From an uncultured Clostridia bacterium (GTDB lineage: Bacteria; Bacillota; Clostridia; UBA1381): 32,000 nucleotides of DNA. Below the pieces are notes generated by a model, which was not told the origin of the DNA, did no database searches, and was given only the letters and a program-made list of their open reading frames with translations. The stretch is from positions 1,142-33,141 of the forward strand of contig CANQIP010000005.1 of assembly GCA_947623955.1 (NCBI GenBank), read 5' to 3'. Position numbers and translations under genes: made by a program. How positions within the stretch are numbered: position 1 is the first letter of the stretch; each line of letters opens with the position of its first letter. This document shows, piece after piece, positions 4,172-26,515 of the stretch.

Positions 4172-4190
4172 CAACTGTTCCTCCTATCCT

Positions 4191-6040: not shown

Positions 6041-6047
6041 GAACAAC

Positions 6048-6077: not shown

Positions 6078-6085
6078 GTTTGCAA

Positions 6086-8871: not shown

Positions 8872-8898
8872 TGTTCTCTCCCCTTTTCGCGCGGCTTA

Positions 8899-10452
8899 TT
8901 ATTTGTCCTCTTCCTTTATTGCGAATACGCCGTCAAGGAATTTGTCGTCAAACTTCTTTGTAAACGCCGACACAATAGGTACGACAACGAGCGACACAGC
9001 CATAGCGCATACGCCCATTTCCGGCGCTTTTGCCGCTGCGGCATTGATCGAGCCGCCGGATATCGCGAGTACTATCGTCGGTATCGCAACGGTCAGAAAA
9101 CCGCATATCATACCTGCCCACGCGCCCGCCTTTGTAATCTTCTTTGAGTATATACCCCATATGTACGGGCCTATGAAACATCCCGAAACGATGCCCCAGC
9201 TAAACGACATGATGTTTACTATAATACTGATGTTAGCCGTTGCAAATAAGTACGAAAGTCCGACAAACACGAGACAGAGTATTCTCGTAAGGAGCATCTG
9301 ATTTTTCTCTGCGTAGTCCTTTTTGATTGCGGGTATGAGATCAACCGAGATCGACGACGACGATGAAAGCACTATCGACGACAGCGTTGACATCGACGCC
9401 GACAAAAGCAGTACGAGTATTACCGCGAATATGATTACGGGTACAATACTTGCTCCGCCGCCGAGAGCCTTTACGAGTACGTTCGGGATAACCGAGTCAA
9501 CGCCGCCCGCAGGGAGTTCCGTAAGCACCAGTCTCGAAAGCGAGCCGATAAAGTACGCGCCGCAGCCGATTATGAGCGAGAACGCCGTTGAAATAATCGT
9601 AGCGCGGGGAATTGATTTTACGTCCTTAATCGCGTAGTATTTGCTTACCATCTGCGGAAGTCCCCATGTGCCAAAACTTGTGAGAAGTATGTTTATGCAA
9701 AGGAACTGCCAGCTTGCGCCGCCGAACCAGCTTGTAAGCTGCGATCCCTTGCTTACTCCGTTTTCGGTAACAGCGGAAAGACGGGGTATGATCTGTGCAA
9801 AGCCGCCTACATTCGGCGAGTGAACAACGGCTATAACCATCGCTATAACGCCGACAATCATTATGATACCCTGTACAAAATCGGTGTACGCCGTCGCGAC
9901 GTAGCCGCCGAGTACGAGATAAGCCGCCGTAAGCACCGCTATTATAAGCAGCCATACGTTTATCGGCACGCTCGGGAACACCGTCTGGAACATCGTTCCG
10001 AGACCCTTATATACAGCCGCGCTGTACGGTACGAGAAATACGAATATGATTATTGCCGAGAATATTTTAAGAGCCTTGCAGTCGTAACGTGACTCGAAGA
10101 AACCCGGCATAGTCTTAACGTTCAGCGTGTGCGTCATTGTGCGCGAGCGTTTCGCGAGCAAAAGCCACGCTACGAGACAACCGAGTACCGCGTTGCCTAT
10201 GCCTATCCACAGGCTGCCAAGACCAATGTTCCAGCCGTGCTGACCCGCGTAGCCGACAAAAACGACAGCCGAAAAATACGCCGTGCCGTACGCAAACGCG
10301 CTGACCCATGCGCCTATCTTACGGTTTCCCAAAAGAAAGCCGTCAACTGTTTTTGCTTTTCTTGTGCTGATAATTCCTATTGCCACCATCGCGAGCGCAA
10401 AAATAATGAGCGCCACGATCGTGACGGTTTGAATGAGTTGTAAATTTTCCAT
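8899..10452 (-). CDS. Sodium:solute symporter (SSS) family transporter
   Basis: 517 aa with about 13 hydrophobic helices and an SSS-like N-terminal region. It lies 27 nt upstream of the acyl-CoA synthetase gene, so the two probably form an operon. Confidence 0.85.
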   Translation of the reverse strand: MENLQLIQTVTIVALIIFALAMVAIGIISTRKAKTVDGFLLGNRKIGAWVSAFAYGTAYFSAVVFVGYAGQHGWNIGLGSLWIGIGNAVLGCLVAWLLLAKRSRTMTHTLNVKTMPGFFESRYDCKALKIFSAIIIFVFLVPYSAAVYKGLGTMFQTVFPSVPINVWLLIIAVLTAAYLVLGGYVATAYTDFVQGIIMIVGVIAMVIAVVHSPNVGGFAQIIPRLSAVTENGVSKGSQLTSWFGGASWQFLCINILLTSFGTWGLPQMVSKYYAIKDVKSIPRATIISTAFSLIIGCGAYFIGSLSRLVLTELPAGGVDSVIPNVLVKALGGGASIVPVIIFAVILVLLLSASMSTLSSIVLSSSSSISVDLIPAIKKDYAEKNQMLLTRILCLVFVGLSYLFATANISIIVNIMSFSWGIVSGCFIGPYIWGIYSKKITKAGAWAGMICGFLTVAIPTIVLAISGGSINAAAAKAPEMGVCAMAVSLVVVPIVSAFTKKFDDKFLDGVFAIKEEDK

Positions 10453-10631
10453 TTCCTACCTGTCCTTCCTTACTTCTTTGGATTTTTGATTTTAAAATTG
10501 ATGTCTCCCCCGTACTGCTAAAAAACTACGGCTGATATTATACCATATACGGCGGTATAAATAAAGCCGTCCGCCTGTTTTTTTCCGTTTTGCATAAAAA
10601 ATTAACTCTGTTTTTGTGTATTTGTAATAGC

Positions 10632-10659
10632 AAAAAAAGAGCCCGAAGGCCCTTTTTTA
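10632..10659. terminator. Terminator after the SGNH esterase gene
   Basis: aaaaaagagcc-cgaa-ggccctttttt: an A-run/T-run extended hairpin with one mismatch. Confidence 0.55.
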
Positions 10660-10668
10660 AATTCGTTT

Positions 10669-13600: not shown

Positions 13601-13854
13601 TTTACGGGGAACGTGCCCGCGTCCTTGTTGTGGGCGAGATCCGTTATCGCCGCGTATTTGCGGTTCATGTCGCCGGAGGTCGTGACCGTTATGTCCTTTG
13701 TGAGCGCAACGTCCGTTATGTCGTTAGGCGAGCCGTCGGTTATCACGTTGTTGCCGCTGAACGTGTACGTAACGCCGTTCGCCGCAGCCGCGCCGATGCC
13801 CGCCACCGACACGCAGAGAAACGCCGAAAGTATAATTGCCGCTATCTTTTTCAT
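10669..13854 (-). CDS. Secreted multidomain carbohydrate esterase: signal peptide, beta-sandwich/Ig-like modules, C-terminal SGNH/GDSL hydrolase (rhamnogalacturonan-acetylesterase-like)
   Basis: An internal ATG at 13854 is preceded by AAAGGAGAT and by its own promoter. The signal peptide is MKKIAAIILSAFLCVSVAGIGAAAANG. A Big_2-like segment reads VLKVTPTGRLAPVGTGKATITA. SGNH blocks are IGDSLA, GWGQVL, NLANSGQ, GYNDR and GGDTLHSS. Confidence 0.8.
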   Translation of the reverse strand: MKKIAAIILSAFLCVSVAGIGAAAANGVTYTFSGNNVITDGSPNDITDVALTKDITVTTSGDMNRKYAAITDLAHNKDAGTFPVNNTFTASGSYIYLGCANVNDNAIITLNIPEIAAGSKVTLTFAKPVVTNNGSTLRNTNDPYAYLKIADRYISINGDNFDTWRTESVVTGESTKAIEFHADKWGAVCISKIEISEGDGKPLRDLNINSTQYANLVVNGIKFLADETGHITLPSYPEGETVTIKAYKDGYSESETTAKITSDGANVDIPFTCETDAEYYESDFGTVNGTLALDGEYKIGEGIDAREVTRVFGRVTFDKDGYADVISDCNIPVRISYDGENMSVNDTVIAEKNNMDFELFYDTKNGQVFLKQNDCLYCVNDAVSGGENVTVSKINAVSGKGAALDYIGVSYPDPTKITIEGPDKIVPPVKTETSFANESDCTYTYTAVPEYTPYGTHVEFTTDSALAEVLMPPHDRTPYPPFEGICTVSPSAVASGKMTLTASYNGTTVQKEIEIVGNAKITDWNRNTVYLNLHGTDLAFDVYGVKTGDADMQMGSYMLKDFKSSDESVLKVTPTGRLAPVGTGKATITANAYTGVDNAVSVDYVVDGYYMDRIAEADVSYAENEITPDEHITGYKVSWWNGTEDVELGDIPAYTVKEDGTVVTAYYLASGELRNVSSKKVKTGDKVAAANGTKKVYFCKDGLIEEIKNSDTTIEGFKVTCVPNGIWYQISPVYTYENIGNCADGVTLDGTFLTDRYNITFKKGEAKRGDIFVNGFMAGNNVDQCDADRKLTEGSQYTVKDFYIGDSGKVTVSMTDGSTLMDSVSLTRSGLDTKPLIYVIGDSLACNYYGSYEREVGGGRTGWGQVLDNYINADIVNLANSGQYAKGLYDTAFPSIVNNRPTYCLIECGYNDRSYSTREEMTSCVKAMIRECRENDVVPILVTPNASEHDYKPSVSWSSYLIDAAVDEDCLYIDLSKMSYDFLNSLYGDNADGVITKNYNLTEVGGDTLHSSYAAAQKWASMVAQGLKDMELGWNNDDMFNTDYEYKFTDTLGNEITASVK

Positions 13855-16800
13855 GCTTTTATCTCCTTTTGGTTTGTTTTTATATATTGTATCAGAAAAT
13901 TTATAGTATTGCAAGTACACAAAAACAGACCGCACATGCGCCTTACCCTTTTTGGTATAGCCGATGATGTCCTCGATGTTTACCTCGTTGTTTTGCAGCT
14001 TTTCAAGGTTGGTGTAATACTCATCGTTCGCGTCCGCTATGATCTTCTGTTCTATGTCGTCCGATATTTTGTATTCCTTACCGTCAACGGTCATACTGTT
14101 TATTCTTTGAATTTTCAAAGAGTCCGCCGTATACTTTGACGCGTCGTCGGGCGACGCTTTCGCCACACCGTCAGCGACGGATTGAATAATAGTGTCTGCA
14201 TTGTTCTGTTTCGCCGCCTTATGCTCTGCCGCCGCTTGTTTTTCGGCTTGGTCTTTTTCTATAGCGGCGGGCGTAGAGGTTTCAAACGGATTTTTCGGCT
14301 TTCGTCCGTGATACGGTTCGGTATACACAAGCTTTGCATTGTCCTCCACATCTTCTCGCATGTTGCTTTGTGTTTCTTTTTGCGCCTCGGACTTGACCTT
14401 GTTTATAACGCGCTGCTTGATTATTTCGGGCAAGTCATTATAATTACCCTTAACGGTAATCCGTTTCTGTTTCTTGCCGTCTATAAAGTCTTGTACTTCG
14501 TCGCTTTCGAGCGTTGCTAAAACTCCTTCGTATTGCTCGTCGGTCATATCACCGGCGTAAAGGTCAGTATTTACTTCGATTACGTCCTCGACGTTTTCAC
14601 CGGCAAGTAACCTTTTCATGTAACCTTCCTTAACCTTGTTGCTGTCCTCGCTGTATTGTCTTGCCTGTTTTTGGGTCAGTTCGTAGGTTTTATCGTCGTA
14701 TTTTATATACGTCTTGCCGCTATCCTTATCAAAGCCGCCGTTAGCGAGTGCCTCTTTTATTCTTTCCGTTTCCTCGACAGTGTCGGCGGACATACCTGTA
14801 TTTGTGGGGTCGCCCGTAAACTTCTGTAAATAATAATCCCACCGCTTACGGTTAATAACACCGGGGTGAATAATGCCCTCATCATCAAGAGAACCGACTA
14901 TATTGTTATACAGACCGTTTAAGATGTTCTCGACGTTCTTGACGGGTACGCCGTTTAATGTGCCGAGTGACTTTGCCAAATCGTTAATAGCCTTTGCGTA
15001 TGCGGGAGGGTTGCTCATACCGTTGTCGTCAATCGTCTTTGCAAGCGACATAACCCCGCTTACAATATCGTTTATCCCACTTAAAGCCGACACTTCCATA
15101 TCATACCAGTTGCCGCCTTTGCCGATGTTGAATTTCGCAAGCAGTTCTTCTATGAGCTGCGTCGTCTCACTGCCGCCGAGTGTCGTACCCGCTATTGTGT
15201 TCACGCAGTCGGTAAGATACGCGCTTATTGAGGCGATATATTCGGCGGTGTCGCGGGCTGTAAAATACATATCTGTACTTACATCAATATCCCCGCTGTC
15301 AAAATATAAATCTTGCGCTTGCAAAGCAAGTGTTTCGATTGTTTCTGTCAGTTGCGCCGCGTCAACATCGCTCGCCACATCGTAGTCGCGTATAATACGT
15401 TTTGCGGCTTTTTGATATTCCTGTTGTGTTTTTGCGCTTTCGTTCTCCTCTTCGGTCGCCTTTTTGTTTGCCTTCCGCTGTTCCGCACGCTCCCGCGAGC
15501 GTTTAAGCTGTGTTTCGCGCCATTCGAGATACGCTTGATTTTCCGCCTCGCTGCCGATCATAAGGTTATTCCAGTCCTCCTCATTCGGCACTGGCGGCGC
15601 GTCCTCACTCTCCGCGTTTGTATCAACGCTGTGCTTGACATTTTCGTTATTCTGTGATATATTATTGGTAAAGGCATTGTTCGGAAGAGCGTTTTCAGAC
15701 GTCTGTCCGGGGTTCATATTTTGAACATCTGACACTTCCGACGCCTTATTTTTATATGCGGTTATGACAGATAATCTCCCCGTATCGGGTACTGCCTCAA
15801 CTACATAATAACTACCGTCTATTCTTTTCTCAAACACAACCTTTTTGGCGGGTGTGTTATCTTTATTTTTAAACCTCCAATCCGTTGTTTCCGATACCGT
15901 CATTGTATCGTAATTGTCAAGAACATACCCAATTCGCGCTATATCTCTGCTGTCAGCCATTGATTGGTCAGCCGTGCCGTTTGCTCCGTGGTCGTTTTCA
16001 ATATGCTCTATGGCATACTTGTCTATTGTGTTGTATGAACCTGAAACATCCGTACCCAGTTTATTTTTTATTTCTTGTGCGGCTCTATCTGATATTTTGG
16101 AAATTCTGTAATACCATCTTGTGCGACCGTCTTTTATACTGTCCATATACCTTATAAGTCCATTGTCAACCGCCGCCGTGTCGTCAGCCGTCCACTGCCC
16201 CGATTTTGTCGCAAGCTCCGCCGCCGTAGCGTCCGCGCCATTCTGTTCCAAAGCCGCCTTTGCCGTTTCGTATGTTTCCTTATTGGAAATGCCCTCGTAC
16301 ATAAATTCGTCAATGCGGCTCTCCGCCTCGTTCTTGAAGTCGTCGGTAAACATTTCCTTTTGCATGGTGTTTTCATACAGTTTGGAAACCTTTTTGTTAT
16401 TCTCCTCATTCGGTGCGGGCGGAGCGTCCTCACTCTCCGCGTTTGTATCAACGCTGTACTTGACATTTTCACCCGTCTGCGTCTGCTCCGATGTATCAAC
16501 CGAATAATCAGTCTTGACATTTTCGTCGGGATTTGTTATACTGGTATCAACGGAGTTTCCTTTCGCGGATGTGGATTTATCCACGGCCTTTGAGCCACTA
16601 AAAGCCGGAAAGGGAACTTCGTCTATTTTTCCAATATTGTATACGGTTTTGTTTTCGCTGTCCAATCCTACTGAGATTGTAAGTCTATAATACTTTCCGT
16701 CAAAATCCCTGAAATAACCTGTCCGATAATTAAATCCGTCTTTTGCAAAGTTATGATTTTTTCTGTCGGGTTCAGTTGTCTTACCTCTCTTTGATATTTG

Positions 16801-17067
16801 CGCCAATTCATCAATATGACCGGCAGCAGTTATTTTTGTTTTGTATTCTTTATCAGTCAATCTTCTGGTAGTATTATCAGGATTTCTAACTTCATTCCTA
16901 TATCCCAATTTCCACGCGGTTTTCTCGGATATAGTAAGATTATCACCATCGTCTGTCGGAATTACAACATCACGCCCGTTACGGATTTCGTTATTGATAT
17001 AGTCATAAACCTCACCTTCCCAGTCGTCGGGGTTGTCGCTTTTAATTACCTGTCTGTCAGCCTGCAC
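13855..17067 (-). CDS. Element-encoded multidomain 'polyvalent'-type protein whose frame runs across the att junction, without a stop, into the esterase gene
   Basis: These are the first 1071 codons of the 2132-codon track ORF. The N-terminal module reads NHNFAKDGFNYRTGYFRDFDGKYYRLTISVG. A His-rich nuclease-like module reads IDKYAIEHIENDHGANG...RLSVITAYKNK. A long helical region follows. The GTG start has no obvious RBS, and the element-derived sequence ends at about 13935. Confidence 0.55.
13886..13914 (-). promoter_or_regulatory. Sigma-A-type promoter of the SGNH esterase gene
   Basis: On the minus strand: TTGCAA (13914-13909), a 17-nt spacer, then TACAAT (13891-13886), about 30 nt upstream of the RBS. 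Confidence 0.55.
13921..13934 (+). repeat. 14-nt att-like repeat AAAAACAGACCGCA at the outer end of the element
   Basis: Identical to the reverse complement of 24127-24140, which is the 3' arm plus U-tract of the tRNA-Arg terminator. Confidence 0.6.
15577..15645 (-). repeat. Intragenic 69-nt repeat, copy 2 (linker ENVKHSVDTNAESEDAPPVPNEE)
   Basis: About 62/69 nt identical to 16402-16470 by hand alignment. Confidence 0.8.
16402..16470 (-). repeat. Intragenic 69-nt repeat, copy 1 (linker ENVKYSVDTNAESEDAPPAPNEE)
   Basis: See 15577-15645. Each copy follows a globular module. Confidence 0.8.
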
Positions 17068-17194
17068 ATATTTTAAGTTTGTACCGGGTATCGTTTCTAC
17101 ACTGTAAGCCGTCTCCCCTGAGGCTCCCCTATTGGGGGAGCTGTCAGCGTAGCTGACTGAGGGGTTTGTATTTCTGTGCGCACCTGCCGACGCG

Positions 17195-17326
17195 TTATCG
17201 GCTCTCTCCCAACATCCGTCTTTTCTTTTTCTTCTCGTATGAGCTGCGCGATATTCCCAACTTATCAGCGACTTGCTGATTTGTCATACCAAATCTCGCC
17301 TGCTCCGCCTCTAAATTTCTGAACAT
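17195..17326 (-). CDS. 43-aa helix-turn-helix fragment (XRE-like, probably truncated or frameshifted)
   Basis: Translation is MFRNLEAEQARFGMTNQQVADKLGISRSSYEKKKKRRMLGESR, with RBS gaaggtgagg. It ends inside an A-rich run and overlaps the open upstream frame of the polyvalent-type ORF. Confidence 0.4.
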   Translation of the reverse strand: MFRNLEAEQARFGMTNQQVADKLGISRSSYEKKKKRRMLGESR

Positions 17327-17415
17327 TTTTCCTCACCTTCTTTCAATTTACATCATTTTGTTGTGTTTTTAACCCTTTTGTGCTATAATCACCATAGAAA
17401 GCGAGGTGATTATCA

Positions 17416-17583
17416 ATGGATGCTCGTGTTGAGGTTGCTCTGCAACTGACATTGAAAAATTTGAATGCTGCTGAGTATATGAAAGATACAAGACTGACAA
17501 ATGCTAAAGATACAAACATAAAATTAGCCGAGGCAGTAACAGAATTTTTCAATACCGTTTATGACAAACTACCGAAAGAGTAA
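17416..17583 (+). CDS. 55-aa helical protein of unknown function
   Basis: ATG preceded by GAGGTGA. A TGcTATAAT extended -10 lies at 17381-17389. Too short for the track threshold. Confidence 0.35.
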   Translation: MDARVEVALQLTLKNLNAAEYMKDTRLTNAKDTNIKLAEAVTEFFNTVYDKLPKE

Positions 17584-17584
17584 A

Positions 17585-17734
17585 TTACTCTTTTATTTCG
17601 CTTATTTTCTTAAGCATGTCTAAAATATGAGATTGTGCATGCGGCGGATAGTTTTCAAAGCCCTCTATCATTGTTTCTACTTTTTGATAGAGTGCTTTTT
17701 TTATCCGTTGTAATGTTTCTTTCTCATCAACCAC
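17585..17734 (-). CDS. 49-aa protein of unknown function in the cro-like position, divergent from the XRE gene
   Basis: GTG start with GAGGTGA 5 nt upstream. It lies immediately downstream of a consensus TTGACA-17-TATAAT promoter. Confidence 0.4.
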   Translation of the reverse strand: MVDEKETLQRIKKALYQKVETMIEGFENYPPHAQSHILDMLKKISEIKE

Positions 17735-17762
17735 TGTTCTCACCTCGCTTTCATAAATTACC

Positions 17763-17843
17763 ATTTTGCTAATCTAAAAACATTATATTAGCGTTTTGCT
17801 ATTTTGTCAATACTTTTTTCAAAAATATTATCATTTTGTTAAT
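17763..17843. promoter_or_regulatory. Four copies of an 11-nt operator-like motif RTTTTGYYAWT in the divergent promoter region
   Basis: The copies are ATTTTGCTAAT (17763), GTTTTGCTATT (17793), ATTTTGTCAAT (17801) and ATTTTGTTAAT (17833). They overlap or flank both promoters. Confidence 0.45.
17782..17810 (-). promoter_or_regulatory. Consensus sigma-A promoter reading leftward
   Basis: On the minus strand: TTGACA (17810-17805), a 17-nt spacer, then TATAAT (17787-17782). Confidence 0.6.
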
Positions 17844-17849
17844 TTTTTA

Positions 17850-17878
17850 TTGACAACCGTATTTTAATAGTGTATATT
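17850..17878 (+). promoter_or_regulatory. Promoter of the XRE operon
   Basis: TTGACA (17850-17855), a 17-nt spacer, then TATATT (17873-17878). AGGAGG precedes the ATG at 17898. Confidence 0.55.
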
Positions 17879-17897
17879 AACTTTAGGAGGTGGCACT

Positions 17898-18281
17898 ATG
17901 AACGGCTTTGGAGAACGGCTTGTAGCTGCGCGTGAAAAAAAAGGATTAAGTCAAAAAGCTCTTGCGGAACTTTTGGATATTACACCTACACGCTTAAACT
18001 ATTGGGAAAAAAACAAACGTGAACCTGATTTCTATTATTTTTCTCAAATAATAGAAGTTTTGGACATTGAGGCTAACGAATTACTCGGACTTTCTAAAAC
18101 AGCAGATCAGTTAAATCGAAACAAGGATTTCTCTCTTTCCAAAATAGAGCAAAGCCTCATAGCTGATTTTCGTAACCTCTCGGATCAAGGGCAGGACTAT
18201 ATACTTCAAACTATGGATATGGTAAAAGATAAATATAAAAAAGATTTTTATTCTTCCAACGTGGAGGAAAAAGTAAGCTAA
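17898..18281 (+). CDS. XRE-family helix-turn-helix transcriptional regulator (repressor-like)
   Basis: GERLVAAREKKGLSQKALAELLDITPTRLNYWEKNKREP is a typical Cro/C1-type HTH. Strong RBS. Confidence 0.85.
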   Translation: MNGFGERLVAAREKKGLSQKALAELLDITPTRLNYWEKNKREPDFYYFSQIIEVLDIEANELLGLSKTADQLNRNKDFSLSKIEQSLIADFRNLSDQGQDYILQTMDMVKDKYKKDFYSSNVEEKVS

Positions 18282-18287
18282 GGTGTT

Positions 18288-18674
18288 ATGACAATGAATA
18301 TATTAGATAAAATAACGCGGATATTGTTTTACCCGTCATGGTTTGGATATATTTTCGGAACTATGTGCATTTTTATATGTTTCGGTATGTATCTGAAATC
18401 TACATGGCATGATACTGCAATAGCACAAAAACGCTTTATTATCATTTCCTTGATATGTTTAGCCATCGGCATTATCAACATTCCTTTAACTGGTATTGTT
18501 AAAGCAAATGCCGATAAAGGTGTAAGCGGTACAGGGGCAAAGATATACGATGAAATAACGGAATATGCTCACAAAATTTACGGCGAAGATTATCCCGATG
18601 CTATTACATCACTGCGTGATGATTTAAAAACTCTCAGCGAAGGCTACAATGAAGGGTATAGTGACAGTTATTGA
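18288..18674 (+). CDS. Small membrane protein (2 TM helices plus an acidic tail), unknown function
   Basis: 128-aa ORF with RBS AAGGTG. It starts 6 nt after the XRE stop and has two clear hydrophobic segments. Confidence 0.55.
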   Translation: MTMNILDKITRILFYPSWFGYIFGTMCIFICFGMYLKSTWHDTAIAQKRFIIISLICLAIGIINIPLTGIVKANADKGVSGTGAKIYDEITEYAHKIYGEDYPDAITSLRDDLKTLSEGYNEGYSDSY

Positions 18675-18706
18675 GAATGACGTGATTATTAGAAGGAGTA
18701 AAGCGT

Positions 18707-19201
18707 ATGTCCGAGCAAGAGTCGTCTACATTTACGATAATTATAGCGGCTGTTATAGCAGTCATATATCTAATATATAGAATGATTAAAGTTTTTATTG
18801 ATAGTCCAAGTAGAAAAAATGTCATATTCTTTACTTTGACGTGCGAATATCTTATTGACTCTATGGAAGTTGATATTGACGACTTAAATCCAAAATGTAA
18901 GACACTCCTGATGCAACAAATAAAGCAACTGATAAAACAAACAAAAAAAGAAATTCAGAAGTGGGATAAATCTGTTAATTATACATATATGGCATATAAA
19001 ACAATATATAACATGGCTTTTGATTTGCTTTCTACTGGCAAATTTAATATGTATGACGGAATATTCTATAGAGAGGGTTCACATTTACATACTGTTTGTA
19101 TAAGATGTCTTGATTGGTATAAAACAAATGGATATATTACTGAATTGCAATATAAGGAGCAGTTGAATATTTTATATGATAATATATTTCATTTAGGATA
19201 A
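18707..19201 (+). CDS. Membrane-anchored protein (N-terminal TM plus ~135-aa helical cytoplasmic domain), unknown function
   Basis: 164-aa ORF with RBS GAAGGAG. The hydrophobic segment is TFTIIIAAVIAVIYLIY. Confidence 0.55.
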   Translation: MSEQESSTFTIIIAAVIAVIYLIYRMIKVFIDSPSRKNVIFFTLTCEYLIDSMEVDIDDLNPKCKTLLMQQIKQLIKQTKKEIQKWDKSVNYTYMAYKTIYNMAFDLLSTGKFNMYDGIFYREGSHLHTVCIRCLDWYKTNGYITELQYKEQLNILYDNIFHLG

Positions 19202-19233
19202 AATTTTAAGATATACAAGAAGGAATAGTTAAA

Positions 19234-19377
19234 ATGAAAAAGATACTGATATTTCTTTTTCTGTATATGATGTGCGGCGCAACTGCTTACGCGCACGCGG
19301 GCAGAACCGACGCATACGGCGGTCACTACGACAACGAAACGGGCGAATATCACTATCACCACGGCTACCCCGCGCAT
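19234..19377 (+). pseudogene. 5' fragment (48 codons) of a YHYH-motif membrane protein gene, cut by the inversion
   Basis: RBS GAAGGAA, a signal peptide, then HAGRTDAYGGHYDNETGEYHYHHGYPAH. Past 19377 the track ORF merely reads antisense through the CHAP gene. Confidence 0.65.
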
Positions 19378-20330
19378 CTTACCTTTGACAGGCCGGTGTC
19401 ATCACTTACCTTACATTCAATCATATATCCGTTATCATCTATTCCTATAATTTCCCCGTAACTGATAACGGGTGGATTCCATTCGTTATAATCAACGCTA
19501 ACGCATGATTGATTATTATTTTTGTCATATGCGTATATATGATTTAAGTACAGAATATTTTTTTCGCTGTTATGTTTAGAGAAATTTATATACAATTTCC
19601 ATATTCCGGGGGAAGTGTTCACCATGTCATTCCATATAAGGTCATCTTGATCGTTATTTAGAGTCCATGTCGCACATTTTACATTTGAAATACCTGAGGA
19701 ATCGGAAACCGAACATTGAAGCATGTATCCGTTTGCATCTACTCCGACAACCTTTGCATCAGATATTGTCGGCGGTGTTGTATCTCCTGAATCCCATTTT
19801 GGTCGGATAACGCCTTGAAAATTTCCCCAACCGCCAAAATACTGCATAGTTTGATACTGTGCCGCGGTTCCGTTATAATTGTTGGCAGCACCGTTTTGAC
19901 CCACGCCTTTCATAATTGACACGGTACAGCCTTCTATCGCTACCGCTACATGACCGTATGAGTTTGAAGAGTTGGCTCCAAAGCATAATATATCTCCGGG
20001 CTGAGGTACGAAATCCGGCGTATTAGAAATTTTTTGCCATCCACTCGGATATGATTTACTGAAATAATCCTTAGCGTCATAAGTCCTAAAACCGCCTCCA
20101 CCGGTGTTTTTCCAGTAGTGCGCATCGCCGTATACTATATAATTCATATATGCCGACACAAAGTCAGTACATTGACCGCCAAAACCCGAATCCTTGTACA
20201 TAACTCCATTGTTAGCTTGTGTTTTTGCCCAATTTACAGCTTGATCACGCGTCATTGCTCCAGCGGAAACGGTGTATAAAGCTATAACGGCAAAAATCAC
20301 TCCCACAATACACAAAAATTTTCTCTTCAT
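19365..20330 (-). CDS. Secreted CHAP-domain peptidoglycan hydrolase with Bsp-like repeats, 3'-truncated by the inversion
   Basis: It has a signal peptide and CHAP Cys/His motifs (GGQCTDFV, YGHVAV). One complete Bsp-like repeat is present (CATWTLNNDQDDLIW...HIYAYD). A second repeat breaks off at ...SKVRCA, followed by an out-of-context G and a stop. Confidence 0.8.
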   Translation of the reverse strand: MKRKFLCIVGVIFAVIALYTVSAGAMTRDQAVNWAKTQANNGVMYKDSGFGGQCTDFVSAYMNYIVYGDAHYWKNTGGGGFRTYDAKDYFSKSYPSGWQKISNTPDFVPQPGDILCFGANSSNSYGHVAVAIEGCTVSIMKGVGQNGAANNYNGTAAQYQTMQYFGGWGNFQGVIRPKWDSGDTTPPTISDAKVVGVDANGYMLQCSVSDSSGISNVKCATWTLNNDQDDLIWNDMVNTSPGIWKLYINFSKHNSEKNILYLNHIYAYDKNNNQSCVSVDYNEWNPPVISYGEIIGIDDNGYMIECKVSDDTGLSKVRCAG

Positions 20331-20625
20331 TTTAATTCCTCCTACAAATAAATTTTCGCATCAAAAATGCGTGGCACAAATCCGCACCACGCACAAAAAC
20401 GCGGCTTGGATAAATGTTACCACACATTTTTTATTATATATAGAATACTGTAAACTGCATCTCAAACACTATAACTGTTCTGCATATAAGCTGTTCTACA
20501 TACAAGACCGCGCTTTTTGCAAAGTATGGTTATAGTGTTTGTACATAAAAAACATAATATTCCTTTAACAAAGAATATCATAATTTTTTATATTAAAAAA
20601 ACAGTATTATATATGATTATATAAT

Positions 20626-20664
20626 AAAAAATGTTGTGGTATATATACTATACCACATTTTTTG
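20626..20664. terminator. Hairpin terminator downstream of sigK
   Basis: Hairpin tgtggtata-tatac-tataccaca with flanking A- and T-runs. Confidence 0.65.
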
Positions 20665-20698
20665 CTTATTTTCAATAGGAATATTTATTTTTCTGCTT

Positions 20699-21388
20699 TT
20701 ACAGTGTCCCTTTAAGCTCCGCCGCGAGCTTTTCAAGGCAGCGTTTTTCGATACGGCTCACGTAGCTGCGGCTTATACCGAGAATATCCGCGACCTCGCG
20801 CTGTGTCTTGCGCTTGCCGCCGCCGAGACCGTAACGCCAGCAGATTATATTCGTTTCGTTTACGGTGAGCGTTTTCTTTATCGCGGCACGGAGCTTCTGC
20901 GCCTCTATTTTATCCGAAATAATCTCGGAAACGTCCGTGTCGTCGGCTGTGAGTATATCGGAAAGCGTCATATTGTTGCCTTCCTTGTCCGAACCGACGC
21001 TTTCCTCGATTGACACCTCGTTCTGCAGTTTCTTAGCCTTGCGCATGTACATAAGCACTTCATTTTCTATGCACCGCGATATGTATGTTGAAAGACGGCT
21101 GTTTTTGCGCGGGTTAAAGGTGTTAATACCCTTTATAAGCCCTATTGTGCCGATTGAAATCAAATCCTCTGTATTTTTATCGTCGGCGTACTTTTTCGCG
21201 ATGTGCGCCACAAGGCGCAGATTGCGCTCTATAAGAATATTTTTCGCGCTTTCGCTGCCCTCGGCGTACTCGACAAGGTATTTTTTCTCTTCCTCAGCAG
21301 TCAGCGGTTTCGGGAAAGCGGCGCTCCCGCTTACATACCCCGCGAGTATAAGTACCGTCTGTATCCATTCAAAAAAAATCCCCAACAT
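20699..21388 (-). CDS. sigK: Sporulation sigma factor SigK (pro-sigma-K), uninterrupted
   Basis: YVSGSAAFPKPLTAEEEKKYL, NLRLVAHIAKKY, GTIGLIKGI, DKEGN and GISRSYVSRIEKRCL match SigK rather than SigE as I recall them. I chose the start at 21388 (MLGIFFEW..., RBS AAGGGGG), which leaves a short pro-sequence. Confidence 0.88.
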   Translation of the reverse strand: MLGIFFEWIQTVLILAGYVSGSAAFPKPLTAEEEKKYLVEYAEGSESAKNILIERNLRLVAHIAKKYADDKNTEDLISIGTIGLIKGINTFNPRKNSRLSTYISRCIENEVLMYMRKAKKLQNEVSIEESVGSDKEGNNMTLSDILTADDTDVSEIISDKIEAQKLRAAIKKTLTVNETNIICWRYGLGGGKRKTQREVADILGISRSYVSRIEKRCLEKLAAELKGTL

Positions 21389-21609
21389 CTGTCCGCACCC
21401 CCTTAAAACATAATATGCGCGGTACAAACTTTGTTTTAACATCGTCGCTGTCCTTATTTTGTTTATATTTTTGAATATTGGGAAAGATTATACGGTAAGT
21501 CATATTTTGTCTTTTTATTGTAACACACATATAAAGGGGCTGATATTGATTTGAAACGGATAAACCTATATAATTAAAGCGTGTATAGGAGGAAACGGAG
21601 GTCGGATAT

Positions 21610-22935
21610 ATGTTATGTAATAAATGCGGTTCACAGATACCCGATGATGCTACAGAGTGCGAATTTTGCGGAGCAAAGGTGGACGCTTCCGCCAACAACA
21701 GCGATACAAAGGTACTGAATACAGATGAACTGGCTGCCGCCGCGGCAGGTGTCGGCACTGGAGCTGCCGTCAATAACGGCGGTGATATTTTTGACGATAA
21801 CGAAAAGAAACGCCGCGAACAAATGGAAAAAATGATGGAGGACAAGAAAAAGCAGCTTTCCGAAATCGAGAAAAGGCGCAATGAAAAACGTAAAAAACAG
21901 AAGAGAAAAAAGATAGCGATAATCGCCCTTATCTGCGCGGCAGCCGCAGGTGCGACCGGTCTCGGAGCGCATTATGTAATCAAGGGTGTGATCGGCAATA
22001 CGGTGACAACGGAGCAGACATTGCCTGTATCTTCTCCGACTCCGTCGGCGAGCCCGTCACCGTCGGCAAGCCCGTCAGCCTCGCCTTCGGTAAGTCCGTC
22101 GCCGTCACCGTCGGCTGCACCGACCGCAAGCGTTTCACCGTCGGGTGTGTCGGCGTCGGGTACGCAGAACGGTAACGGCTCGACCACGCAGTCATGGACG
22201 AGCGTGTCTTCGGGCGCATCGTCTCCGCGTTCAGGTTCGTCCTCGGGTACAACCGGCGGCAGACAGGGGGGCAGCGGTTCATCAACAGGTCAGTCGTCGT
22301 CGGGAACAACGGCATCCTCGGGCGGCTCTGGCAGCAGCGCGTCATCTTCATCGTCCTCTGCGTGGGGCGGAGGTTCATCGTCGCAAGGCTCGTCGTCACA
22401 AACCGCGTATGCGAACGCTGCCGACAGCGGTATTGTGTCGGATAAAATTTCGGCAAAGCTCGTCACAGGCGGCGAGGTTATACGCGACAGCGCGACAGGT
22501 AAGCCGTTAATGACGTTTGTAATGGGCGGCACCCGGTATTACGCGAACGTGTCCGAGGGCAGCACAACCGATCAGGTTAAGGGCAAAACCTTTACCATAG
22601 ACGCGGACGCGACGGGAGAAAGCTATAACGGCAACACCATTTACGAAATTTCAAGCATGACGAAGTACGATGGCGACTACATTCTGCCGAATTCAGGTAC
22701 AAGACTTCTGACGCAGAGCGATATAAGCGGATTGTCAAAATACGACCTTGCGCTTGCCCGAAATGAAATTTATGCGCGTCACGGACGCAAATTCCAGACT
22801 GCGGAGTACAGCAATTATTTCTCGGCAAAGTCGTGGTACCACATAAACCCGAATTATAATTACAGCGACGACGACGGCAACTTAAACGACATAGAGCGTA
22901 AAAACGTTATGCTGATACTTAACGCGGAAAAATAA
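21610..22935 (+). CDS. Zinc-ribbon / TM / Ser-Pro-Gly-rich / YARHG-domain protein
   Basis: The N-terminus carries CNKCGSQIP...CEFCG. A K-rich segment and TM helix follow, then a long low-complexity linker. The C-terminus carries LARNEIYARHGRKF (YARHG motif). Confidence 0.8.
   Translation: MLCNKCGSQIPDDATECEFCGAKVDASANNSDTKVLNTDELAAAAAGVGTGAAVNNGGDIFDDNEKKRREQMEKMMEDKKKQLSEIEKRRNEKRKKQKRKKIAIIALICAAAAGATGLGAHYVIKGVIGNTVTTEQTLPVSSPTPSASPSPSASPSASPSVSPSPSPSAAPTASVSPSGVSASGTQNGNGSTTQSWTSVSSGASSPRSGSSSGTTGGRQGGSGSSTGQSSSGTTASSGGSGSSASSSSSSAWGGGSSSQGSSSQTAYANAADSGIVSDKISAKLVTGGEVIRDSATGKPLMTFVMGGTRYYANVSEGSTTDQVKGKTFTIDADATGESYNGNTIYEISSMTKYDGDYILPNSGTRLLTQSDISGLSKYDLALARNEIYARHGRKFQTAEYSNYFSAKSWYHINPNYNYSDDDGNLNDIERKNVMLILNAEK
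22027..22396 (+). repeat. Low-complexity Ser/Pro/Gly-coding tract inside the YARHG gene
   Basis: Degenerate SPSPSA-type and SSGS-type repeats. They generate spurious ORFs in the other frames. Confidence 0.7.
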
Positions 22936-22969
22936 AATTGCACACATAGGATAAAAGGGATATAAAAAG

Positions 22970-23002
22970 ACGGGGACACTAAAGCAATTTTAGTGTCCCC
23001 GT
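22970..23002. terminator. Bidirectional terminator between the YARHG gene and metA
   Basis: 14-bp stem acggggacactaaa / tttagtgtccccgt. Confidence 0.75.
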
Positions 23003-23008
23003 TACGTT

Positions 23009-23926
23009 TTAGTTGATGCTGTCTATATCATACGGAGTAATCTGATATACGAAGTAGTTGAGCCAGTTTGAAAACAGGAGATACGCGTGAGAGCGCCACC
23101 TCGCCGCCGGACGCCTTGTCGGGTCGTCGTTGGGGAAGTAGTGCTTGGGTATCTGCGGATTTAAGCCCTTTTCGAGGTCGCGGAAGTATTCGTCGCGCAG
23201 CGTGTTCGCGTCGTACTCGCTGTGACCCGTCACAAAAATGCGTCTGCCGCCCTTTGTGAATACAATGTACACGCCCGCCTCCTTTGACTCGGCAAGCACT
23301 TCAAGTTCCTTTACCTTGTCTATATCCTCTCTTAAAACGCATGAGTGGCGCGAATGGGGAGCGTAAAATTCGCTGTCGAACCCGCGCACAAGCTTAGCCG
23401 TCCTGCGCGTCACGCGGTGGCGGAACACACCGGAGCATTTTTCTTTGAGCGCGTGTTTCGGCACGCCGTAATGGTAGTACATACCCGCGAACGCCGCCCA
23501 GCAGATGTGGAGCGTGGAGGTGACGTTCGTCTTTGACCACTCCATTATTTCTACAAGTTCATCCCAGTAATCGACTTCTTCAAACTCCAAATTCTCGACC
23601 GGCGCGCCGGTTATGATCATGCCGTCGTATTTCGACTTTTTTATCTCGTCGAACGTCTTGTAGAACGCCGCCAGATGCTCGGCGGACGTATTTTTCGATT
23701 CGTGCGAGTCCATTTGCAGAAAATCAATCTCCACCTGCAGCGGCGAGTTGGACAAAAGCCTTAAAAGCTGCGTTTCGGTCGTTATTTTGGTAGGCATCAG
23801 ATTTACTATTACTATTTTAAGAGGACGTATATCCTGGTGCATAGCCTTTTTTTCACTCATTACAAATATATTCTCCCTGCGCAGCTGGCTTGTCGCAGGC
23901 AACTTGTCCGGAATTTTGATAGGCAT
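23009..23926 (-). CDS. metA: Homoserine O-acyltransferase MetA
   Basis: [23 protein letters not shown]...[14 protein letters not shown] is canonical MetA. I chose the start at 23926 (305 aa) rather than the track's 23986. Confidence 0.9.
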
Positions 23927-23986
23927 ATACACTCTCTCCCTTCGTGATTTAATCCGTCTATATGAGTATAACACAAAAATCCGCAT

Positions 23987-24015
23987 TTGACAATATTAAA
24001 ATGATATGGTAGAAT
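23987..24015 (+). promoter_or_regulatory. tRNA-Arg promoter, sharing a palindromic -35 with the divergent metA promoter
   Basis: On the plus strand: TTGACA (23987-23992), 17 nt, TAGAAT (24010-24015). On the minus strand: TTGTCA (23993-23988), 17 nt, TATACT upstream of metA. Confidence 0.5.
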
Positions 24016-24025
24016 AATCGGGTAC

Positions 24026-24102
24026 GCACCCGTAGCTCAGTCGGATAGAGCGCAAGACTCCGACTCTTGAGGCCGCAGGTTCGAATCCCGTCGGGTGCGC
24101 CA
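24026..24102 (+). tRNA. tRNA-Arg: tRNA-Arg (anticodon CCG), CCA encoded
   Basis: The cloverleaf was folded by hand. Acceptor stem GCACCCG/CGGGTGC, D-arm GCTC..GAGC, anticodon stem CAAGA/TCTTG with loop CTCCGAC, and T-loop TTCGAAT. There is one A:C mismatch in the T-stem. Confidence 0.88.
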
Positions 24103-24107
24103 GAATA

Positions 24108-24140
24108 GAAACAGACCGCATAGGTATGCGGTCTGTTTTT
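24108..24140 (+). terminator. tRNA-Arg terminator hairpin; inferred integration target of the element
   Basis: Hairpin gaaacagaccgca-taggta-tgcggtctgttttt. Its 3' arm is repeated (as the reverse complement) at 13921-13934. Confidence 0.75.
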
Positions 24141-24144
24141 CTGT

Positions 24145-24166
24145 ATCCCCGAATTATCCCCGAATT
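24145..24166. repeat. Tandem 11-nt repeat ATCCCCGAATT x2 between the att repeat and the integrase stop codon
   Basis: Perfect tandem duplication. Its position is typical for arm-type integrase binding sites. Confidence 0.5.
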
Positions 24167-24177
24167 TTACCGGAAAT

Positions 24178-25338
24178 TTATATTTTTGCTCTAATTTTGT
24201 TCAGTACAGTGAGCGCACGTTCTTCCTCTTTTGGATATAAATGCGAGTAAGTGTTCCAGGTCATTTTAATATCGCTGTGACCGAGACGGCGAGCGATTTC
24301 CTGAATATTGATACCGTTATTAGCGAGAAGGGATGCGTGGCTATGTCTAAAATCGTGTATACGGATTTTCTTCAATCCTGCCGCAGACGCGTATTTTTGG
24401 TTACGGTTTTCGATCGTGCTGTCACGTAGGCATTTGACGCCGCCGCATATCCGCCAGTCGTCCGAAAATCCGTCAAGCATTTTCAGCCGATTATAATGTT
24501 CGGTCAAAACGTCTTTCAGCGGCAAAGGTATTTGTATATCACGCACGGAGCTTTTATTTTTCGGCGGCGTTTCGCGGTCGCCGCCCTTTAGCTTTTGCGC
24601 GATACTGCGAGTTACGTGGATTGTGTTATCCGATATATCCGTCCATTTCAGCGCGTTTATTTCGCCCTTTCTCATGCCGGTGTAGAAAGCGATATTGAAA
24701 AACACATAGAAATTCCACTCGTAAAGGCTGCCGAATGTCTGTTCCGACTGCTCGGCTTGTTCACGCGCGGCGGCAATAAATTTTAAAAATTCGTCCGCCG
24801 TGTAAAAATCCATATCGTTTTTTATTATATTCGCGTCTTTGAAATTGCCGAGCTTTGTCAGCGGGTTTTTGTCGATGTACTCCATTTTTACGGCATAGTT
24901 CAACACGGCGCGAAAAACAGAATATATTTTATGCTTATACTCCAGCGAAAGAGAGTTTTTTGTTGACGTCATGTATTCGTCTATGTGCGTTTTCCAACGC
25001 TGAAACTGCGGCACTGTCAGCTTGCCGAGCCGCGCCGAACCAAAAAAGGGGATAATATAGCTTTTAATGATTTTGCTGTTTCGGTCAAGGGTGCTTTCAC
25101 GGACTTCGTTTCTTTTAACCCGAATATACTCATTACATAGGTCTGTTACCGTAATCTTCATTGAGATGTCCTCGTTATTAAGATCGCGCACGAGGCGGCT
25201 TTCAAGTTCTTTTGCCGCATCCTTGCCGTAAGCGACACGCTCAATCTGCTTATATGCGCCGAAACTGTCAACGTAGTTTACGCGCACACGGTATTTCTGC
25301 AAGCCGTTTTTTTTATCGCCTGTTTTATAAATCGGCAT
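24178..25338 (-). CDS. int: Tyrosine site-specific integrase (phage-integrase family, with an N-terminal arm-binding-type domain)
   Basis: The C-terminal catalytic pattern is HDFRHSHASLL...RLGHSDIKMTWNTYSHL. The N-terminus reads KYRVRVNYVDSFGAYKQ. Adjacent to the 3' side of the tRNA gene. Confidence 0.9.
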   Translation of the reverse strand: MPIYKTGDKKNGLQKYRVRVNYVDSFGAYKQIERVAYGKDAAKELESRLVRDLNNEDISMKITVTDLCNEYIRVKRNEVRESTLDRNSKIIKSYIIPFFGSARLGKLTVPQFQRWKTHIDEYMTSTKNSLSLEYKHKIYSVFRAVLNYAVKMEYIDKNPLTKLGNFKDANIIKNDMDFYTADEFLKFIAAAREQAEQSEQTFGSLYEWNFYVFFNIAFYTGMRKGEINALKWTDISDNTIHVTRSIAQKLKGGDRETPPKNKSSVRDIQIPLPLKDVLTEHYNRLKMLDGFSDDWRICGGVKCLRDSTIENRNQKYASAAGLKKIRIHDFRHSHASLLANNGINIQEIARRLGHSDIKMTWNTYSHLYPKEEERALTVLNKIRAKI

Positions 25339-25353
25339 AAAAATAACACTCCC

Positions 25354-26073
25354 TTATTTATTTTTCTTATCCCACTCAGCATATTCGGAGTTTGGGAACA
25401 TCTCAACAAACCAATCATCTATGCCCTCAACCGGATTACAGTGGGGACAGGCGGTGTAGCCTTGCAGAACAGCATCATATCTATGTAAGGTCGCCCGTAC
25501 TTTGCCTTTGCCGTGCAGGGCCTTGCAGGAAAGAGTATGGTAACAGTGTCCATGTTGAGTGACATATACATTATATTCCATTCCCCAGCCGTATTCACGG
25601 TGATATTTGTACGGAAGTCCGTCGTCCCCTATAGCATAGCCGTCGGGACATTTCGGCGGAGTGTTGCCATGTTTTTTTAGTTCCTCGATTTCTTGTATAT
25701 GCTGCTCATTCAAATTGTTGATTTCGCTTTTATGCTTCTGTTTCAACGTGTCGATTTCTGCGATATGCTCTTTTTCGATACCTTTTATATTTCTTCTGTG
25801 CACAACCGACAAGCCTATAATGCCCGCGATACTGATTACCGGCACGACAGGGAATGACGATGTTTTCGCAGCCGCGTTATTGTTGTGCTGCGCGGCGGTA
25901 AGCGGCGCAGTAGTAGGCGGCGTTTTCTGTACGGACGCTATCGGCGGCGATAACGGATCGGGCGTTTCAAGGTGCAGTTCCGGCTTTGGCGTTGCGGTTG
26001 ACGTGGAAGAATTACCCGACGTGTGAACTGTTTTGTCTTTAAAGTCATACGGGCATACGCCGTCTATGTGTTC
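25354..26073 (-). pseudogene. 3' fragment (239 codons) of the YHYH-motif membrane protein gene
   Basis: The frame is open from 26073 with no start codon before the GTG at 25845. The sequence runs EHIDGVCPYDF..., a P/T-rich linker, a TM helix, a coiled coil, then a Cys/His module (GHCYHTLSC...ACPHCNP). It continues in frame from 19377 once the segment is flipped. Confidence 0.65.
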
Positions 26074-26515
26074 ATGTGCGACATGGACGAACGAAAACGG
26101 GCAGGATGACCTTGTATGGACTGATATGGTAAATACGTCCCCGGGAATATGGAAATTATATATTCATTTTTCAGAGCATGGTAAAAACACTCCATATGCA
26201 AATGACATATATGCCTATGATACTTTTCAGAAAGAATCAAAATGTTACAGTGTTCCGTTTGATTATTGGGATTTGAACGCTTTTCCGTTTGCGATATATA
26301 AATATAATGACCATATAAATGTGATAAATCTTGCATCAACTTCAAAAAATGCGGCTGTTATCTTCGCAAAATATGACGGTTCAAAACTTGTTGATTCAAG
26401 TTTCAGCAATGAAAGTTTTACGTCGGGAGAAAGAAAAAGCTATTCAAAATCGGGAAATGAATACAAAGTGCTCATATGGAACAGCCTTACGGGAATGAAA
26501 CCGTTGACGCAGTAA
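26074..26515 (+). pseudogene. 3' fragment of the CHAP/Bsp-repeat hydrolase gene
   Basis: It begins (C)ATWTNENGQDDLVWTDMVNTSPGIWKLYIHFSEHGK...DIYAYD, which completes the repeat broken at 19371. It has no RBS or signal peptide of its own. Confidence 0.75.

Follow-up and report, generated by a model that had tools for sequence, protein, structure and literature searches.

The 32,000-nt stretch analysed here (the window, to whose positions all coordinates refer) belongs to the metagenome-assembled genome (MAG) of an uncultured Clostridia bacterium from the rabbit gut and derives from a metagenome assembly of low coverage. It contains a 6,696-bp inverted segment (19378..26073), recognised by an in-silico flip and by its match to a sister strain, at whose two ends a pair of unrelated genes are reciprocally split. 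One of them encodes a secreted cell-wall hydrolase with a CHAP domain, the other a membrane protein with a signal peptide and a YHYH motif. The segment holds the N-terminal piece of the hydrolase gene (CHAP-N), sigK, a YARHG gene, metA, tRNA-Arg, a tyrosine integrase gene (int) and the C-terminal piece of the YHYH gene (YHYH-C). At the left junction, J1 (19371..19377), the parental matches overlap by the seven nucleotides CGCGCAT, which on the minus strand read ATGCGCG, the allele of the YHYH gene; the right junction, J2 (26074..26080), placed by the flip and by blastn against intact loci, has the core ATGTGCG, the allele of the CHAP gene. The two cores are complementary at 6/7 positions, and the single mismatch changes no amino acid in either gene (GCG/GCA, Ala; TGT/TGC, Cys). 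Reverse-complementing either 19378-26073 or 19371-26080 in silico produces open reading frames (ORFs) of exactly 287 and 464 amino acids (aa), which flips placed off-register from the core do not rebuild.

The N-terminal piece of the hydrolase gene, delimited by Pfam matches and alignment, occupies 19378..20330 on the minus strand and encodes a signal peptide, the CHAP domain, a first Bsp repeat and the start of a second. As it now stands, the ORF runs from 20330 to 19365 (minus strand) and gives a 321-aa product ending in ...SKVRCAG, which is called identically in at least four independent assemblies. This frame, which retains the promoter, the signal peptide, the CHAP domain and 1.4 Bsp repeats, is probably still expressed as a truncated secreted enzyme devoid of its C-terminal third. 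The C-terminal piece (CHAP-C, 26074..26515, plus strand), which matches the intact loci L006 and L007 from the core onward, comprises the remainder of Bsp repeat 2 and the tail; it has no start of its own, and its nucleotides 26081-26515 code for the hydrolase's remaining 144 aa. Once joined through the sequence AAAGGTAAGATG[T/C]GCGACATGGACG, the restored 464-aa protein matches CHAP once and GBS_Bsp-like repeats twice in Pfam searches, and it aligns with intact homologues with no gap across the junction, being 92% identical over 100% of its length to a 464-aa protein (P0001) and 99% identical to three members of the 90% cluster of that protein (P0122, P0125 and P0126, 464 aa each). The gene is intact in the sister strains (L005, L006 and L007-L010), and the restored version differs from the L006 orthologue in nine codons, five synonymous and one non-synonymous in CHAP-N, one synonymous and two non-synonymous in CHAP-C, with no stop or frameshift; nine substitutions are too few for any inference on decay beyond the lack of lesions. 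Residues N410 and T463 of CHAP belong to the SNP background of the window's strain.

For the second gene, the N-terminal piece (YHYH-N, 19234..19377, plus strand) consists of 48 codons for the signal peptide and the YHYH motif and is 97% identical to positions 1491-1639 of the phage contig L011. The present ORF starting at 19234 is 75 aa long (MKKILIFLF...GEYHYHHGYPAH) and, past the junction, reads into antisense CHAP sequence. The start-less C-terminal piece (25354..26073, minus strand) encodes 239 aa with a transmembrane segment, a coiled coil and a Cys/His module and matches L011 1633-2380 and L012 2951-3611. The restored 287-aa protein, whose junction reads CTACCCCGCGCATGAACACATAG, matches the NCBIfam model YHYH_alt at residues 18-42 (37.9 bits, cut-off 30), while a Pfam scan of it returned no YHYH-family match and just weak coiled-coil noise. 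A 288-aa protein (P0129) covers 100% of it at 92% identity, intact proteins of 283-290 aa are colinear with it through the junction at 89-93% identity, and further homologues of 250-340 aa cover 94-100% of the query. Moreover, the junction (...GYPAH/EHIDGVCPY...) falls within an invariant block, in which H48, H50, G53, C55, P56 and Y57 do not vary.

The order that preceded the inversion is found in L006, a contig of 57 kb assembled from a different sample within the same European Nucleotide Archive (ENA) project, about 96% identical in nucleotides to the window. There, an SSF transporter gene (minus), a gene for a 1061-aa secreted protein (minus), a BrnT/BrnA-like module, tRNA-Arg (minus), metA (plus), the YARHG gene (minus), sigK (plus), the intact CHAP gene (plus), recR (minus), ybaB (minus) and dnaX (minus) follow one another, and no mobile element lies at tRNA-Arg. 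Between the same flanks, everything from tRNA-Arg to CHAP-N runs the other way round in the window, which also contains some 7.4 kb of extra DNA. In blastn, L006 matches window 8251-13870 forward, 24146-19371 reversed (L006 6183-10960) and 26074-29683 forward (L006 10954-14556), the matches overlapping by 7 nt at the breakpoints, so that they break exactly at the cores; likewise, L011 1491-1639 matches 19229-19377 and L011 1633-2380 matches 26080-25336. A single flip thus makes the window colinear with the order of its relative, as a simple chromosomal inversion does.

The original prediction, made from the letters of the window without database searches, had already described two unrelated genes reciprocally split by an inversion of about 6.7 kb, and the flip, the colinear homologues and the gene order of L006 all bear this out. 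The positions and sequences of the four gene pieces and of both cores, together with the 6/7 match and its synonymous mismatch, were reproduced; the cargo it had listed for the flipped segment (integrase, tRNA-Arg, metA and sigK) was recovered by domain and tRNA searches; and the checks it had proposed, namely the flip of 19378-26073, profile searches for CHAP, GBS_Bsp-like and YHYH domains, colinearity of the restored ORFs with uninterrupted homologues, and comparison with related genomes, gave two exactly restored frames of 464 and 287 aa, CHAP with two GBS_Bsp-like repeats (Pfam) and YHYH_alt (NCBIfam), colinear proteins for both genes, and an un-inverted ancestral order in the sister strain. 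Since the restored proteins are colinear with intact ones over 100% of their length at 92-99% identity, and since the blastn matches break at the 7-nt cores, the split genes and their restoration by the flip are confirmed in every detail and lie far beyond chance.

The segment took several genes along as passengers. The sigK gene (20699..21442, minus strand) is intact, scoring 299 bits against a cut-off of 252 with the SigK model NF004471, and has the same neighbours in L005 and L006. The gene for the zinc-ribbon/YARHG protein (21610..22935, plus strand) and metA (23009..23986, minus strand; homoserine O-acyltransferase, HTS), both identified by Pfam, also belong to the L006 order. They are followed by tRNA-Arg(CCG) (24026..24102, plus strand), whose terminator is an integration target and whose counterpart in L006 has an empty site, and by the 386-aa tyrosine integrase (24178..25338, minus strand; Pfam Phage_integrase and SAM-like domains).

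Both int and the YHYH gene are part of an integrated element of about 7.4 kb that sits in the tRNA-Arg terminator and is devoid of structural genes. The larger share of it, to the left of J1 (13936..19377), is missing from L006, has a low GC content (33-38%) and gives Pfam and PHROG matches; it comprises a gene for a PBECR3 polyvalent protein (minus), three small ORFs between this gene and a pair of divergent promoters, an XRE repressor gene (plus), ORFs of 128 and 164 aa (plus) and YHYH-N (plus). The attachment site next to the tRNA, attL (ATGCGGTCTGTTTTTCTGTA, 24127..24146, plus strand), coincides with the 3' arm of the terminator hairpin, and homology with the element-free L006 stops at 24146; attR (ATGTGCGGTCTGTTTTTGTGTA, 13914..13935, minus strand) lies at the other end. 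They share an exact 14-nt core, TGCGGTCTGTTTTT (24127-24140, plus; 13921-13934, minus), duplicated by the integration; by chance, 0.35 matches with at most two mismatches would be expected. The unoccupied attB downstream of tRNA-Arg in L006, GGTATGCGGTCTGTTTTTGTGTA, is again the 3' arm of the terminator hairpin. In the window, the attL copy is followed by element DNA and int, and the attR copy by promoter sequence of the host gene for the 1061-aa protein; the two are now inverted and 10.2 kb apart, and undoing the 6.7-kb flip turns them into direct repeats, as expected for attL and attR. The junction of the circular form can be reconstructed as attP GGCGCATGTGCGGTCTGTTTTTCTGTATCCCCG.

The setting of int is that of related phages and elements. 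Its stop (24178) lies 76 nt from the 3' end of tRNA-Arg (24102), a layout shared with L014-L020 and L022, and a tRNA or tmRNA gene occurs on the opposite strand just downstream of int in nine of the ten closest among 27 related integrase loci of GTDB genomes, mostly rabbit 'Lapin' Clostridia MAGs. On the phage contigs L011, L012/L013 and L054/L055, an XRE gene, one or more small ORFs, the YHYH gene and int follow each other on one strand, which is the un-flipped order, and beyond this module L012 has lysis and tail genes as well as a 2972-aa LPD/PBECR3 protein. The integrase matches phrog_1 'integrase' (242 bits), and it failed the model for FimB/E-type tyrosine DNA invertases (NF007370; 20.6 bits, cut-off 221). 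Because of the att sites, the gene order of related phages, the tRNA neighbours and these model scores, the recombinase within the flipped segment is the integrase of the element rather than an orphan invertase; on sequence grounds it is an ordinary tRNA-targeting phage integrase with an att core of its own, different from the crossover sites.

Several features of the element and its borders are worth recording. Back-to-back consensus sigma-70-like promoters (TTGACA-17-TATAAT, minus; TTGACA-17-TATATT, plus) occupy 17782-17878, where they separate the XRE gene from the small ORFs of the minus strand, and this region looks like a phage-type lysogeny switch. The small ORFs 17416-17583 and 17585-17764 are candidate genes for recombination directionality factors (RDFs). 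A 2132-aa ORF (10669-17067, minus strand), called as a single gene in public assemblies, crosses the attR boundary at 13914-13935 and, as judged from its frame, is a read-through artefact in which the PBECR3 protein continues in frame, without a stop, through attR into the host 1061-aa secreted protein. The latter has its own ribosome-binding site, ATG and signal peptide (MKKIAAIILSAF...), and in the reconstructed circular element the PBECR3 ORF measures 1066 aa, its stop lying 20 codons beyond the core. L006 has, between attB and the gene for the 1061-aa protein, a small toxin-antitoxin-like module of the BrnT/BrnA-like kind (5619-6182; a BrnA_antitoxin Pfam match and an upstream ORF); at the same spot (13871-13913), the window is without it and has 43 nt with a promoter-like TTGCAA-N17-TACAAT.

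The N-terminal part of the YHYH protein has a distribution of its own. In the list of homologues, many proteins match just the first 45-50 residues or so, which comprise the signal peptide and the YHYH motif (60-76% identity, 15-25% coverage), and have unrelated C-termini, and this head therefore behaves as a shuffled N-terminal module, with whose end the inversion breakpoint coincides. In L016, an element with the same type of integrase (88% identity), likewise at tRNA-Arg(CCG), a YHYH-like gene is represented by no more than its first 29 codons (3647-3733), after which different cargo follows (a 243-aa ORF). On account of this different cargo and of the 29-codon gene, L016 was rejected as an un-inverted reference; its remodelling suggests that the cargo directly upstream of int is often reshuffled in this element family.

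Comparison of the junctions with their parents defines the exchange to the nucleotide. The intact CHAP gene reads AAGGTAAG-ATGTGCG-ACATGG in L006 and L007, L005 having ATGCGCG, and the reverse complement of the YHYH gene reads GTGTTC-ATGCGCG-GGGTAG in L011 and L012; in the window, J1 reads AAGGTAAG-ATGCGCG-GGGTAG and J2 GTGTTC-ATGTGCG-ACATGG. The exchange was thus reciprocal and conservative, with no base gained or lost at either junction, and since the single mismatch shows the YHYH allele at J1 and the CHAP allele at J2, the crossovers would have fallen within or to the left of ATG, unless the alleles segregated from a heteroduplex. Beyond the cores, the flanks of the two sites match at 23/80 positions, which is the random level, and ATGYGCG is no commoner in the window than chance would have it (13 copies, about 17 expected). 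Extended inverted repeats at the junctions were considered and rejected, given these flanks and a repeat search of the window that found no inverted repeat spanning the junctions, the only pair detected being formed by the first Bsp repeat and what is left of the second.

This pair is a 106-nt inverted repeat, 78% complementary, between 19572-19677 (Bsp repeat 1, in CHAP-N) and 26074-26179 (the rest of Bsp repeat 2, in CHAP-C), and it owes its existence entirely to the inversion. Homologous recombination between its arms could bring about a secondary inversion, which would leave an in-frame CHAP gene with a single repeat.

Both junctions recur in assemblies of different origin. J1, with CHAP-N convergent to YHYH-N, was found in four ENA assemblies (ERZ27249167, ERZ27249180, ERZ27249158 and ERZ27249647) and in the Logan assemblies of ERR10663770 and ERR10663773 (contigs L001-L004 and L052-L053); J2, with recR, CHAP-C, YHYH-C and int, was found in the same four ENA samples and in the Logan assemblies of ERR10663770, ERR10663771 and ERR10663772 (contigs L041-L047). 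All these contigs are 99.8-100% identical to the window, with 0-3 single-nucleotide polymorphisms (SNPs) per 5-16 kb across the region of the finding; L041 has 12 SNPs, every one on the recR/dnaX side. Every contig with the 164-aa protein of the element shows J1, every contig with the exact recR protein shows J2, and the exact integrase is indexed on one further contig only, L042, which shows J2. Among the ENA and Logan contigs, none ends at J1 or J2, all running through, and in every sample the inverted orientation was the only one assembled, at about 4-7x coverage. The exact restored proteins of 464 and 287 aa were not found in a collection of 15 billion proteins either, and no flip between the inverted attL and attR is seen in L001, which is colinear across 9365-25154.

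Contigs of the inverted strain do break within or just upstream of int (at 25100 twice, 25154, 25233, 25320 twice and 25523), probably because co-resident rabbit-gut Clostridia genomes hold integrases that are 80-89% identical. The J1 contig L052 (Logan, ERR10663770) differs from the window in its left 358 nt, with the differences clustered at 17224-17267, and is identical to it from 17268 on; its left end (1-410) resembles the phage L012, the two parts joining in a stretch of about 200 nt (window 17216-17418), over which related phages show 88-90% conservation. It was rejected as a second lineage carrying J1, given its identity to the window from 17268, and is probably a chimeric or graph-level join or a recombinant variant of the element.

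The original prediction had seen no lesions in any of the four gene pieces and had concluded that the event was either very recent or reversible. The first observation holds, with no stops or frameshifts, and of the two alternatives it is recency that stands, because the pieces are free of lesions, the CHAP gene differs from its L006 orthologue in few codons and the inverted contigs are near-clonal, whereas a reversible switch is unsupported. Finding the inverted arrangement only had been named beforehand as the mark of a fixed rearrangement, and this is what the inversion looks like.

Taken together, these data make it probable that a single, recent, non-programmed inversion became fixed in one clonal lineage through a one-off reciprocal exchange at a microhomology. 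In the succession of events that the comparisons establish, a phage-derived integrative element of about 7.4 kb, carrying the integrase, the YHYH membrane protein, two small ORFs, the XRE repressor and the 1066-aa PBECR3 polyvalent protein, entered the tRNA-Arg(CCG) terminator and duplicated the core TGCGGTCTGTTTTT; a reciprocal exchange then took place between the YHYH gene of the element (...CCC CGCGCAT GAA...) and Bsp repeat 2 of the CHAP gene (...AAG ATGTGCG ACA...), 6.7 kb apart and in opposite orientation, and turned round the DNA with int, tRNA-Arg, metA, sigK, the YARHG gene and the first two-thirds (5') of the CHAP gene. The most likely mechanism would be short-homology (illegitimate) recombination at the 7-nt microhomology. 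As a consequence, the YHYH protein would be cut down to a 75-aa stub, CHAP-C and YHYH-C would be left without starts of their own, and int would be uncoupled from the XRE-YHYH lysogeny operon. Moreover, because attL and attR have become inverted repeats, Int should no longer be able to excise the element, only to flip the DNA between the att sites, and the inversion probably locks the element in place.

Three observations weigh against such an uncatalysed, one-time event. The exact reciprocity, a microhomology of the size of a tyrosine-recombinase overlap (7 bp) and the position of int about 0.7 kb from one of the sites are what an enzyme-catalysed exchange would look like too; the P arm of the reconstructed attP has the same 7-mer beside its core (GCGCATGTGCGGTCTG); and with assemblies at about 4-7x coverage, a minority orientation of less than some 20% would escape assembly. 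The first two of these lend some weight to a reading that shares the one-off, fixed inversion and attributes it to the tyrosine integrase of the element, acting at two inverted pseudo-att sites with ATGYGCG as the overlap and the mismatch resolved from heteroduplex, and this is a possible though clearly less probable explanation. The typical overlap of tyrosine recombinases of the lambda integrase type is indeed 7 bp, no nucleotide was lost at J1 or J2, int lies within the segment beside the YHYH site, and in the reconstructed attP the sequence CATGTGCGG directly abuts the core and resembles its counterparts in the YHYH site (CATGCGCGG) and the CHAP site (GATGTGCGA). Nevertheless, the natural crossover takes place inside TGCGGTCTGTTTTT, which the crossover sites match at about 6/14 positions in a by-eye alignment, and the two sites diverge from each other directly after GCG; the likeness of the sites to the att core was accordingly set aside as evidence, the 7-mer being common and the match so low. 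In addition, the 7-mer occurs at chance frequency (13 copies in 32 kb), the flanks (23/80) have no arm-type or core-type repeats in common, and a central mismatch within the overlap is strongly inhibitory to tyrosine recombinases.

A programmed, developmental inversion, in which the integrase would flip the segment back, for instance at sporulation, and so rebuild the CHAP and YHYH genes, is quite unlikely. The four lesion-free pieces, the recombinase gene within the segment and the low assembly coverage, which could hide a minority orientation, would fit it, as would the presence of sigK, which makes the organism probably a spore-former; recombinase-mediated rearrangements that rebuild genes are known from spore-formers (PMC4191935, PMC5595907, PMC5025042), and intragenic invertons exist (PMC10028968). 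Yet the sporulation rearrangements of that literature are excisions of elements from within genes and not inversions (PMC4191935, PMC5595907, PMC5025042), sigK is intact, and the only inverted repeat is a 6/7 match of a common 7-mer. One of the sites lies in a mobile element that is absent from a sister strain whose CHAP gene is simply intact, and the pair of sites is therefore strain-specific, not conserved in L005, L006 and L007-L010, and no evolved system. Together with the tRNA-integrating phage type of the integrase, far below the invertase cut-off, and with the single orientation of all ENA and Logan contigs, unbroken at the junctions, this leaves without support a reversible, possibly sporulation-linked switch driven by the enclosed integrase, reversibility being one of the two alternatives of the original prediction. 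More generally, it is very unlikely that Int or another recombinase flips the 6.7 kb back at the 7-bp core under some conditions, such as in the sporulating mother cell; if it did, this would be the first developmental gene reconstitution of the inversion type, not the excision type, in a spore-former, carried out by a phage integrase on non-att sites. Finally, an inversion that exists in the contig only and not in cells is extremely improbable: the source is a low-coverage MAG, but both junctions are identical in the four ENA (NODE_) assemblies and in Logan assemblies of different runs, and since two assembly pipelines agree and a 7-nt repeat, far below any assembler k-mer, is too short to cause one, a mis-join is ruled out.

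The one-off inversion favoured here offers a clean natural case of an integrated element and a nearby chromosomal gene recombining at a tiny microhomology, in an event that truncates a secreted cell-wall hydrolase, destroys a cargo gene of the element and, as its att sites became inverted repeats, probably immobilises it. Work on structural variation between strains and on the grounding of prophages and elements in gut Clostridia can make use of it. It also calls for caution in MAG annotation, where the hydrolase and YHYH genes would show up as four odd-looking ORFs, while a fused ORF of 2132 aa is called over attR. Elsewhere in the window, 675-1790 and 1830-2942 (both minus strand) are tandem paralogues of about 370 aa, nearly identical in their N-terminal 58 residues or so (MFKKFYTTQMSGSAKMLQKRFTEIRRRRGRAARLAA...) and divergent in their C-termini; they lie downstream of ORFs 2967-3797 and 3794-4174, which, from a reading of their translations, resemble a putative sensor-peptidase of the BlaR1 type and a repressor of the BlaI type.

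Several known systems resemble the locus in part. Programmed invertons rely on inverted repeats recognised by a recombinase and have both orientations in the population, and PMC10028968 describes intragenic and 'partial intergenic' invertons, among them an intragenic thiC inverton with a repeat of 11 nt. Similarly to these and to the Hin/Gin or FimB/FimE switches, the segment is bounded by inverted sequence, alters two ORFs and has a site-specific recombinase gene inside. It differs in that the repeat is only 6/7 of a common 7-mer with random flanks, against the 11 nt given for thiC in PMC10028968, in that a single orientation is seen in contigs, in that the two genes holding the sites are unrelated and differ in evolutionary origin, the sites not being conserved as a pair in relatives, and in that an integrase that has att sites of its own takes the place of an invertase.

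The gene-intervening elements of sporulation, such as skin in sigK, SPbeta in spsM, gin in gerE and yin in yabG (PMC5025042, PMC4191935, PMC5595907, PMC10747680), sit inside one gene and are excised by attL x attR recombination in the mother cell (PMC4191935, PMC5595907, PMC5025042, PMC10747680). A phage-derived element with a recombinase, a probable spore-former as host, an exactly reversible-looking gene interruption and a nearby sigK are common to both situations; here, however, two genes are cut by an inversion at sites unrelated to the att core. A skin-like arrangement, in which an element flanked by direct att repeats interrupts the coding sequence of a sporulation gene, was not found, as the element lies in the tRNA-Arg terminator and the full-length sigK passes the SigK cut-off.

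Closer to the locus are the tRNA-targeting elements and prophages with lambda-type integrases, in which int adjoins the 3' side of the tRNA, a repeat of the tRNA-proximal sequence marks the far end and a relative has an empty attB; the lysogeny module, with divergent promoters, an XRE repressor, a cargo gene and int as in related phages, is a further likeness. With int beside the 3' side of tRNA-Arg, a duplicated core and an empty site in L006, the sequence places the element among them, set apart by its small size (about 7.4 kb, no structural genes), by its being broken by an inversion and by att sites that are now inverted and 10.2 kb apart. As for the rearrangement itself, the closest category is that of ordinary strain-specific inversions between a mobile element and the chromosome. 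Like other short-homology inversions of this kind, it is a single reciprocal flip against an order kept in a sister strain, at a microhomology of a few bases, with both breakpoint genes truncated and one breakpoint in an integrated element. No essential difference from them was identified, the neatness of the present case, with its exact junctions and lesion-free genes, mainly indicating that the event is recent.

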